Origin: Escherichia phage RCIP0363
Sequence record: PV464739.1
Direction: 5' to 3' (one strand)
DNA: 64,000 nt
Shown here: positions 6,600-6,900 of the stretch, piece by piece
Layout of the letters: the number at the start of each line of letters is the position of its first letter
Numbering within the stretch: position 1 is the first letter of the stretch
The notes under the pieces: generated by a model
The model's input: only the letters and a program-made list of their open reading frames with translations
Told to the model about the DNA's origin: nothing
Databases searched by the model: none
Translations under genes and position numbers: made by a program

Positions 6600-6900
6600 A
6601 TTGCCGCAGGATTTTACGCGTATAATGACGTATCATCCGTATCAAGTAAGTAGTTGTTTTCAAAAGAATCTTACGGATGATACGGATGATATGCATTGCC
6701 GCGATACTTTATAGGAATTCAAATAAATTAATTTAAAATTATATATCTAATTTAATTTTATTTTTTTATAAACTCTTATATATGAAAAGTATCCGTATCA
6801 TCCGTATCATCCGTAGCACACCAGTGATAGCGCGGCTTATACACCGATACGGATAAAAATACGCCTCATTTTATCCGTATCATCCGTATCACACTAATTA
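6600..6900. promoter_or_regulatory. Repeat-rich regulatory module, copy 1
   Basis: TATAAT at 6621-6626; tandem and inverted copies of the 9-mer GATACGGAT/ATCCGTATC at 6630-6643, 6673-6691, 6791-6817, 6846-6855 and 6873-6890; AT-rich core 6720-6790; related to the module at 58105-58405. Confidence 0.5.

Follow-up and report, generated by a model that had tools for sequence, protein, structure and literature searches.

A paired, iteron-like module in Wifcevirus phages as a tentative SaPI-type replication origin, with the packaging start in one copy

In phages SPP1 (oriL/oriR) and P4 (ori/crr), the same initiator-binding repeats are found in two distant clusters per genome. Small-terminase sites flank the pac region in SPP1 pacL-pacC-pacR and in P1 pac, and the origins of T7 and T4 consist of a promoter with a downstream A/T-rich unwinding element. 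Closest to the locus described here are the staphylococcal pathogenicity islands (SaPIs), in which Rep, a helicase that loads itself and acts as initiator, reads short iterons through its C-terminal winged helix (PMC9371898). The iterons of the SaPI origin, 6-12 in number, directly follow rep and surround an A/T-rich centre; each side has two or more, and those of the two sides point in opposite directions (PMC9371898). A module resembling this layout was found in two copies in the 64,000-nucleotide stretch of Escherichia phage RCIP0363 analyzed here (record PV464739.1, hereafter the window), copy 1 preceding the head genes and copy 2 preceding the small terminase gene terS (Table 1). The module is read, as something possible rather than probable, as an iteron origin of the SaPI-Rep type, in which copy 2 would be the ancestral origin as well as the site of the packaging cut, and copy 1 a duplicated origin or a second required site.

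With Escherichia and Shigella members of the genus Wifcevirus (ECO71P1, TH35, FEC19, WFH and others) the window shares 99% identity, and it is colinear with phage kaset, whose record begins at terL. Wifceviruses are virulent E. coli myoviruses of ~68 kb in the family Lindbergviridae and are distant kin of the Pseudomonas PB1-like genus Pbunavirus. Copy 1 is present in all 28 of 28 Wifcevirus records. An original prediction, made from the letters of the window, had described around 6600-6900 a region free of open reading frames (ORFs) with a TATAAT box, tandem 9-mers and a nearly pure A/T core, located before the scaffold and capsid operon, and these elements were all recovered: TATAAT at 6621-6626, ACGGATGATACGGATGATA at 6673-6691, ATCCGTATC ATCCGTATC ATCCGTAGC in tandem at 6791-6817, further 9-mers at 6635, 6846 (inverted) and 6873/6882, and a core at 6704-6793 with 88.9% A+T, which ranks first in the 64 kb. 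No credible ORF was found in 6585-7000, after which the genes at 7001-8419 and 9054-10193 follow. The prediction had also noted inverted extra copies of the 9-mer; these exist, but its description needs correction in that the whole left and right arrays are inverted relative to each other, forming 25-nt arms that are 92% complementary with 94 nt between them. This arrangement matters for the interpretation of the module.

Eight exact copies of the 9-mer ATCCGTATC stand in the window, where 0.28 would be expected, and 0 of 100 shuffles reached eight; seven of the eight are within 6635-6890 and one is at 58211. The 7-mer ATCCGTA occurs 20 times versus 4.5 expected, with 14 in the two modules, which also hold nine of the ten occurrences of the common core ATGATACG. 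The core of copy 1 is the most A/T-rich 90-nt stretch of the window (mean 53.8% A+T), and that of copy 2, at 84.4%, is the second. When 6600-6900 was aligned with 58105-58405, a comparison proposed in the original prediction, the two copies aligned over ~300 nt; a search for a third copy in the full genome of kaset found none, and additional matches in the Wifcevirus records were fragments of copy 2. As single-stranded DNA, 6600-6920 folds at -55.6 kcal/mol (z = -7.65 versus shuffles).

The same layout, with opposed short repeats around an A/T core of ~90 bp, recurs in Myosmarvirus, Pbunavirus and several metagenomic relatives. In Serratia phage MyoSmar and the Pbunavirus elmo, a non-coding gap of about 470-510 bp occupies the same position, from a small gene to the protease/scaffold gene, and both phages share TGCCGCG left of the core and CGCGGCA right of it; elmo, MyoSmar and the IMG/VR loci L036 and L045 also have the motif TTGCCGCG left of the core. 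Opposed repeats on both sides hold as well in copy 2 of the window, MyoSmar, elmo, Xanthomonas phage FoX7 and the same two IMG/VR loci. The repeats themselves are those of the lineage, TTACTTTTCG/AAAAGTA in MyoSmar and GGTAATTTGG in elmo. Elsewhere in the MyoSmar genome the repeat forms one cluster, which is the second copy (3593-3703); the elmo repeat likewise forms one other cluster, the second copy at 57,330-57,950, beneath a spurious-looking coding sequence (CDS), elmo_73 (57412-58065). A metagenomic relative carries GATAGTTG in both copies. Both copies are readable in four lineages, each of which uses its own repeat in both (ATGATACGG, ACTTTTCG/AAAAGTA, GGTAATTTGG and GATAGTTG), and four more lineages, read at copy 1 alone, have their own repeat in each case; a scan of IMG/VR with TerS as the query yielded just one new lineage. 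Since both copies switch repeat together in the four lineages, a single fast-evolving phage protein probably reads copies 1 and 2.

The sole module of FoX7 directly follows the primase-helicase gene, at a distance of 2.8 kb from terS. Its CGTTATTTA repeats run in both orientations, no spot of the FoX7 genome is richer in A/T, and modules are absent both before the protease/head genes and before terS. In elmo and MyoSmar, copy 2 is directly downstream of the helicase gene. Based on the finding that the single module of FoX7 is linked to the helicase, such a module, equivalent to copy 2 here, seems to be the ancestral form, and copy 1 a later duplicate.

The ends of the phage DNA locate the packaging start in copy 2. 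The linear records of WFH, WFC and Ro157lw, which come from two laboratories, all start in the copy 2 core at the point between 58271 and 58272, with 3.5-3.8 kb repeated at the right end of each record, and the Mansfield record ends at this same point. A Wifcevirus terminal repeat of ~3.7 kb has been described (Korf et al., PMC6563267), and terminal repeats were also reported in PMC6753283. In MyoSmar, the PhageTerm repeat (1-3559) terminates at copy 2, and the record of its relative MTx begins ~14 nt off in homologous coordinates (a PhageTerm boundary). The Pbunavirus JG024 is reported to be a headful packager with circularly permuted DNA, in which 36 of 161 long reads begin at 59,376 +/- 5 and a pac fragment is consistent with 59,376 (PMC10913387). 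This position falls within the A/T core of JG024 copy 2 and coincides exactly with nucleotide 1 in the records of Ab27 and Pa193, of which the Ab27 record was oriented by reads having a fixed end (PMC4482731). Three independent Pbunavirus data sets agree on the packaging start to the nucleotide. The product of 58632-59105 matches TerS of phage E217 (PDB 7UXE, E = 9e-33 by phmmer), and its Mansfield counterpart is annotated as terminase small subunit. With record and read ends in its core and terS directly to its right, copy 2 contains the packaging start. No record begins at copy 1, and no paper reports ends there.

Copy 2 further contains a block of 21 nt, CTATGGTGCGCCGCGACTGGG, which is identical in copy 2 of Wifcevirus and MyoSmar (MyoSmar 3654-3634) even though the proteins of the two are just 35-55% identical. 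Its distance to the cut or terminal-repeat boundary is 84 nt in Wifcevirus and 74 nt in MyoSmar. The block is not in copy 1 of Wifcevirus or MyoSmar and was not seen in the Pbunaviruses elmo and JG024. A G/T-rich tract is located left of copy 2 (window 57900-58040; GC skew +0.31 for 57001-58000), with corresponding regions in MyoSmar (3900-3730, reverse strand), elmo (57370-57520) and FoX7 (54030-54146), and C/A-rich tracts or tandem repeats are found right of the module, in FoX7 CCCCATCATCAA three times and CCCGGCAACAA five times.

The candidate initiator is a VapE-like helicase whose sequence matches SaPI1 Rep1 (PDB 7PDS) with E = 4e-11. Its alignment-based AlphaFold2 model has a predicted local distance difference test score (pLDDT) of 89.6, and the best Foldseek match of the model is again 7PDS (E = 2.5e-16, ~480 columns, target-normalised template-modelling score 0.62), followed by NrS-1, SaPI5 PriRep and the poxvirus D5/E5 primase-helicases. 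The C-terminus of the model (residues 436-504, helix/helix/helix/two-strand) appears winged-helix-like, as assigned from its topology and the near-full-length alignment. The C-terminal ~110 residues are the most divergent part of the helicase between genera, which is expected of the part reading lineage-specific repeats. TerS is itself just 35-39% identical between genera, and gene adjacency, used as a test of TerS versus helicase, gave no decision, in that each adjacency holds in three genera and is broken once. In the window, copy 1 is preceded by a 45-aa gene of the head region.

In the favoured reading, the repeats would be bound by the C-terminal winged-helix domain of the Rep1-like helicase, one helicase hexamer would be loaded on each side of the core, the core would then be melted, and the RepB-type primase (46322-47404) would prime synthesis. 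Copy 1 would be a later duplicate, ~60 bp upstream of the sigma-70 promoter that serves the protease/scaffold/capsid operon, and may act as a second origin or a required second site, in the manner of SPP1 oriL/oriR and P4 ori/crr. The repeats of the module are likewise placed in two distant clusters, but the initiator families and repeat architecture of SPP1 and P4 are unlike those of the module. Copy 2 in addition receives the first packaging cut of the terminase in its A/T core, which generates the left end of the ~3.7-kb terminal repeat.

The module agrees with the SaPI origin in several features. Copy 1 has at least two opposed repeats per side (6672-6691 versus 6791-6817 and 6873-6890), the central region is A/T-rich, with the copies in the window ranking first and second in A+T, the repeat sequence is lineage-specific, and a separate primase gene is found upstream of the phage helicase gene. 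Furthermore, in FoX7, Pbunavirus and Myosmarvirus the helicase gene has the module directly after it, and the helicase is a homologue of SaPI1 Rep1 in sequence and in near-full-length fold. Unlike the SaPIs, the phages carry an extra family-wide TGCCGCG motif, two copies per genome, and have a packaging cut within the core of one copy; the element here is a virulent 68-kb myovirus, while a SaPI is a satellite.

Several points weigh against the SaPI-type origin. Neither copy in the window adjoins the helicase gene, copy 2 being 7.4 kb away from it, and the phage repeats are 7-9 nt long versus 5-6 nt in SaPIs. For an unwinding element, richness in A/T would suffice, yet most of copy 1 is almost invariant in sequence: the 342 nt of 6710-7051 show 1 difference between Wifcevirus subclades while the flanks diverge by 8-10% (27 positions in 6440-6709 and 8 in 7052-7150), and the A/T core shows zero differences in an alignment of five Wifcevirus genomes. 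This near-identical stretch, which as a sign of selection also speaks for the origin, spans the core and the right arrays and extends across the promoter into the protease/scaffold gene, as far as its first 50 nt. The reading offers no explanation for the TGCCGCG motif or for the G/T-rich and C/A-rich tracts on either side of copy 2. The sole experimental facts on the module are the packaging ends in the copy 2 core, and terminase recognition explains copy 2, which terS adjoins in three genera, equally well. The near-total identity of the copy 1 core, the TGCCGCG motif and the two kinds of tracts sit cleanly with none of the readings considered. Copy 2 of Wifcevirus is ~88% identical between subclades, with a mosaic left flank. 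The GC skew of the window tracks gene orientation and gives no origin signal.

It is unlikely, if still a serious candidate, that the module is a terminase platform, in which the repeats would be sites for the ring-shaped small terminase, copy 2 the true pac or terminal-repeat-end site, and copy 1 an uncut pac-like copy. TerS bound there, upstream of the head-operon promoter, would couple capsid expression to the terminase level; alternatively, copies 1 and 2 would be paired, by analogy with a proposal made for T4 gp16. The only experimental data, the DNA ends, bear on packaging and place its start in the copy 2 core in three genera; in Wifcevirus, Myosmarvirus and Pbunavirus alike, terS directly follows copy 2, and TerS diverges enough in its N-terminal part to track lineage-specific repeats. 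In Pbunavirus 14-1, whose transcription start sites were taken from an Oxford Nanopore (ONT)-cappable-seq table and carried to the window by homology, P040 (59399, +) at copy 2 and the right tandem repeats overlap, an arrangement that would be suited to self-regulation; P040 is followed by P041, and both promoters drive the TerS homologue gp76. As in the pac regions of SPP1 and P1, the repeats of copy 2 flank a central first-cut region next to terS, but copy 1 has no reported end in any record or paper, and a 90-bp near-pure A/T core is atypical of SPP1 and P1 pac sites. The FoX7 module is apart from terS, staying with the helicase gene while nothing similar precedes terS. There is little precedent for a conserved uncut pac-like site, and the terminase specificity could be carried by elements confined to copy 2, namely the sequence at the cut and the CTATGGTGCGCCGCGACTGGG block at its conserved distance of 74-84 nt. 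TerS of E217 reportedly shows no appreciable DNA binding in vitro (review, PMC9611059).

A proposal that joins replication to packaging, and that seems rather improbable, is that the terminase, whose small subunit in E217 reportedly does not bind DNA alone, recognizes the helicase-repeat complex or the melted core of copy 2, instead of a DNA sequence, and then cuts. Copy 1, which is without the 21-nt block and the cut sequence, would in that case fire as an origin and be protected from cutting.

Quite improbable as well is a role of the arrays as operators, on which a dedicated phage regulator would time late functions through the sigma-70 promoters right of each module, the packaging cut in copy 2 being incidental. 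Both modules are directly upstream of rightward sigma-70 promoters (6949-6977 and 58551-58597), with 14-1 equivalents in P014 and in P040/P041, including the overlap of P040 with tandem repeats, and in copy 1 the conservation runs on without a break into the promoter and gene start. P014 (13257, +), with upstream sequence ...TGCGTATATAATACAGCCA, drives gp22 and is the homologue of window 6949-6977, and a -10 block, GATATAATACA, beside the protease/scaffold gene is conserved in MyoSmar and elmo. However, inverted arrays around an A/T core of ~90 bp are atypical of operators, the closest 9-mers are ~100 nt upstream of the predicted head-operon start site, the single module of FoX7 precedes C/A-rich repeats and small genes instead of head genes or terS, and no candidate regulator was found.

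Very improbable is a promoter within the module, formed by the TATAAT at 6621 and an activator, or a small RNA gene transcribed from the core, in spite of a consensus TATAAT in both copies and several promoter-like hexamers in the A/T core: the 14-1 table lists no start site between 9247 and 13257, and thus none in the homologous copy 1 core, no usable -35 element is found at 16-18 nt from the TATAAT, and the counterpart of this box in WFC copy 2 is TATCAT. The box is embedded in the degenerate repeat units CGTATAATGA CGTATCATC CGTATC. Of the two alternatives in the original prediction, the iteron-type origin is the reading favoured here, with better grounds than the prediction had, while the activator-dependent promoter within the module is unsupported: the only 14-1 start in the homologous region is P014, which corresponds to neither the repeats nor the core. 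The prediction did not mention the genome end and packaging start at copy 2, or that the two-copy module recurs across genera with lineage-specific repeats. The head-operon promoter is the sigma-70 site at 6949-6977 rather than the TATAAT at 6621. The T7 and T4 origins likewise have a promoter beside an A/T-rich element, and the module has a TATAAT-like box left of its core, but this box is unconserved as a promoter and is without a mapped 14-1 start, and inverted repeat arrays are no part of the T7 and T4 origins. GCGGC-N-TATA was rejected as a general phage promoter motif, being essentially confined to the two modules and not genome-wide. The alternative 14-1 promoter motif 'CTGGG' was considered for the GCGCCGCGACTGGG block and rejected, with no start site mapped there. 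A non-coding RNA was also rejected: Rfam 15 gave just three sub-threshold matches to miRNA precursors (E = 0.14-0.35), which are due to the long inverted repeat. For JG024, 'AT-rich boxes' and intergenic motifs of unclear function were described, together with a predicted promoter in the core of module 1 (PMC3008698); this promoter, at 13050-13100, is unconfirmed by the 14-1 start-site map.

A cluster of host DnaA boxes of the oriC/datA type, or a site for another host factor, was rejected because the repeat, tandem at 9-bp spacing, changes completely with phage lineage; TCATCCGTA, moreover, fits just a relaxed DnaA consensus. A small mobile element with terminal inverted repeats was rejected on the grounds that both positions are syntenic across genera and that just two copies exist.

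Some further features were observed around the two copies. A 24-codon ORF at 6782-6856 (MKSIRIIRIIRSTPVIARLIHRYG), in which the tandem 9-mers translate as IRIIRIIR, was rejected as a gene, being without a ribosome-binding site and not conserved in other genera, and is probably due to chance. The CDSs annotated over the modules in public records, namely kaset CDS0008/0009 (6625-6714 and 6967-7065) and CDS0090-0092, elmo_73, JG024 gp77 and MyoSmar_007, are very likely spurious, with low-complexity translations that overlap repeats and A/T cores. Just upstream of terS, 58551-58597 contains two overlapping near-consensus sigma-70 promoters, TTGAAC-17-TATAAT and TTGAAT-17-TATAAT, ~280-325 nt in from the left genome end; probably no promoter enters the cell before them, and terS would then be transcribed early. 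The motif ATTTGCACTAT (families D4/D14) occurs in the early region of the terminal repeat at 58613, 58622, 59099-59123, 59279, 59490, 59794 and 60074, and looks like an operator or promoter element distinct from the 9-mers. The largest ORF-free gap of the window, 61628-62324, contains the right end of the terminal repeat (62120 by homology), a 45-nt direct repeat (61975-62062) and two copies of AAATTTGCAGTACACTA (~62144 and ~62240), and may hold a termination or right-cut signal. A 36-nt direct repeat with 94% identity (TCAAAAAGGTGAGCTAAATGCTTGCCTTTT...), at 53514-53549 and 54776-54811, lies across two starts of small early genes, which suggests duplicated gene starts or a shared translation-initiation region.

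Table 1. Coordinates of the two module copies, their elements and associated genes in the window (a slash within a sequence marks the DNA end)
Feature	Position	Strand	Remarks
Copy 1, whole non-coding region	6585-7000	.	between 45-aa gene and protease/scaffold gene
Degenerate repeat run GCGTATAATGACGTATCATCCGTATC, with TATAAT 6621-6626 inside	6618-6643	+	common to copy 2; inverted copy 58380-58409
Left repeat array, two tandem 9-mers facing core	6672-6691	-	92% complementary to 6791-6815
Family-wide motif TTGCCGCG, left orientation	6696-6703	+	another copy 6601-6607
A/T-rich core, candidate DNA-unwinding element	6704-6793	.	88.9% A+T
Right repeat array 1, three tandem 9-mers, inverted relative to left array	6791-6817	+	
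Family-wide motif GCGCGGCT, right orientation	6829-6836	+	second copy 6902-6909; GCGGC-TATA units at 6832, 6905
Perfect 13-bp hairpin/palindrome from two inverted repeat units, GATACGGATAAAA ... TTTTATCCGTATC	6846-6881	.	
Right repeat array 2, two tandem 9-mers	6873-6890	+	
Sigma-70 promoter of protease/scaffold/capsid operon, TTGCCT-17-TATAAT	6949-6977	+	10/12 matches
Head maturation protease/scaffold gene, first downstream of copy 1	7001-8419	+	
Major capsid gene	9054-10193		structural gene between protease/scaffold and capsid genes
RepB-type primase, probable helicase partner	46322-47404	+	Pfam PF16793, 1.6e-36
VapE-like helicase, candidate initiator	48714-50384	+	Pfam PF05272, 1.6e-28
Copy 2 of module	58105-58410	.	
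Copy-2-only block CTATGGTGCGCCGCGACTGGG	58167-58187	+	84 nt left of genome end
Left repeat array of copy 2	58204-58225	-	100% complementary to 6794-6815
A/T core of copy 2	58255-58344	.	left end of terminal repeat at 58271/58272, ...TTAACTCC/ATTTT...
Degenerate right-hand repeats of copy 2, TATACGTATTATCCGTAAG; ATACGGATGATACGTCATGATACG	58335-58403	.	
Small terminase gene terS	58632-59105	+	directly right of copy 2
Right end of terminal repeat, by homology, ...GGGCATGGGTCTTT/	62107-62120	.	WFH and Ro157lw records end on same sequence

In the literature searched, no replication origin has been assigned for PB1-like phages, and no paper was found that links the modules or places the packaging start in an origin-like module next to terS; the packaging site of these phages was previously just a tentative observation in a single phage. 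Pbunaviruses rank with the P. aeruginosa phages employed most often in personalised therapy (PMC11990801), and the PB1-like group also includes the very fast-replicating Wifceviruses. The finding is of interest because origin and pac become testable in a therapeutically used phage group: exact candidate coordinates are given for the origin and the packaging site, a candidate initiator is named, and both functions can be tested directly. These coordinates are useful for genome rebooting, for engineering and for the correction of spurious CDS annotation. If origin loading and the terminase cut are truly coupled, replication would be connected to packaging by a novel link, and terminal-repeat packagers (Wifcevirus and Myosmarvirus) as well as headful packagers (Pbunavirus) would share a new way of choosing the packaging site.

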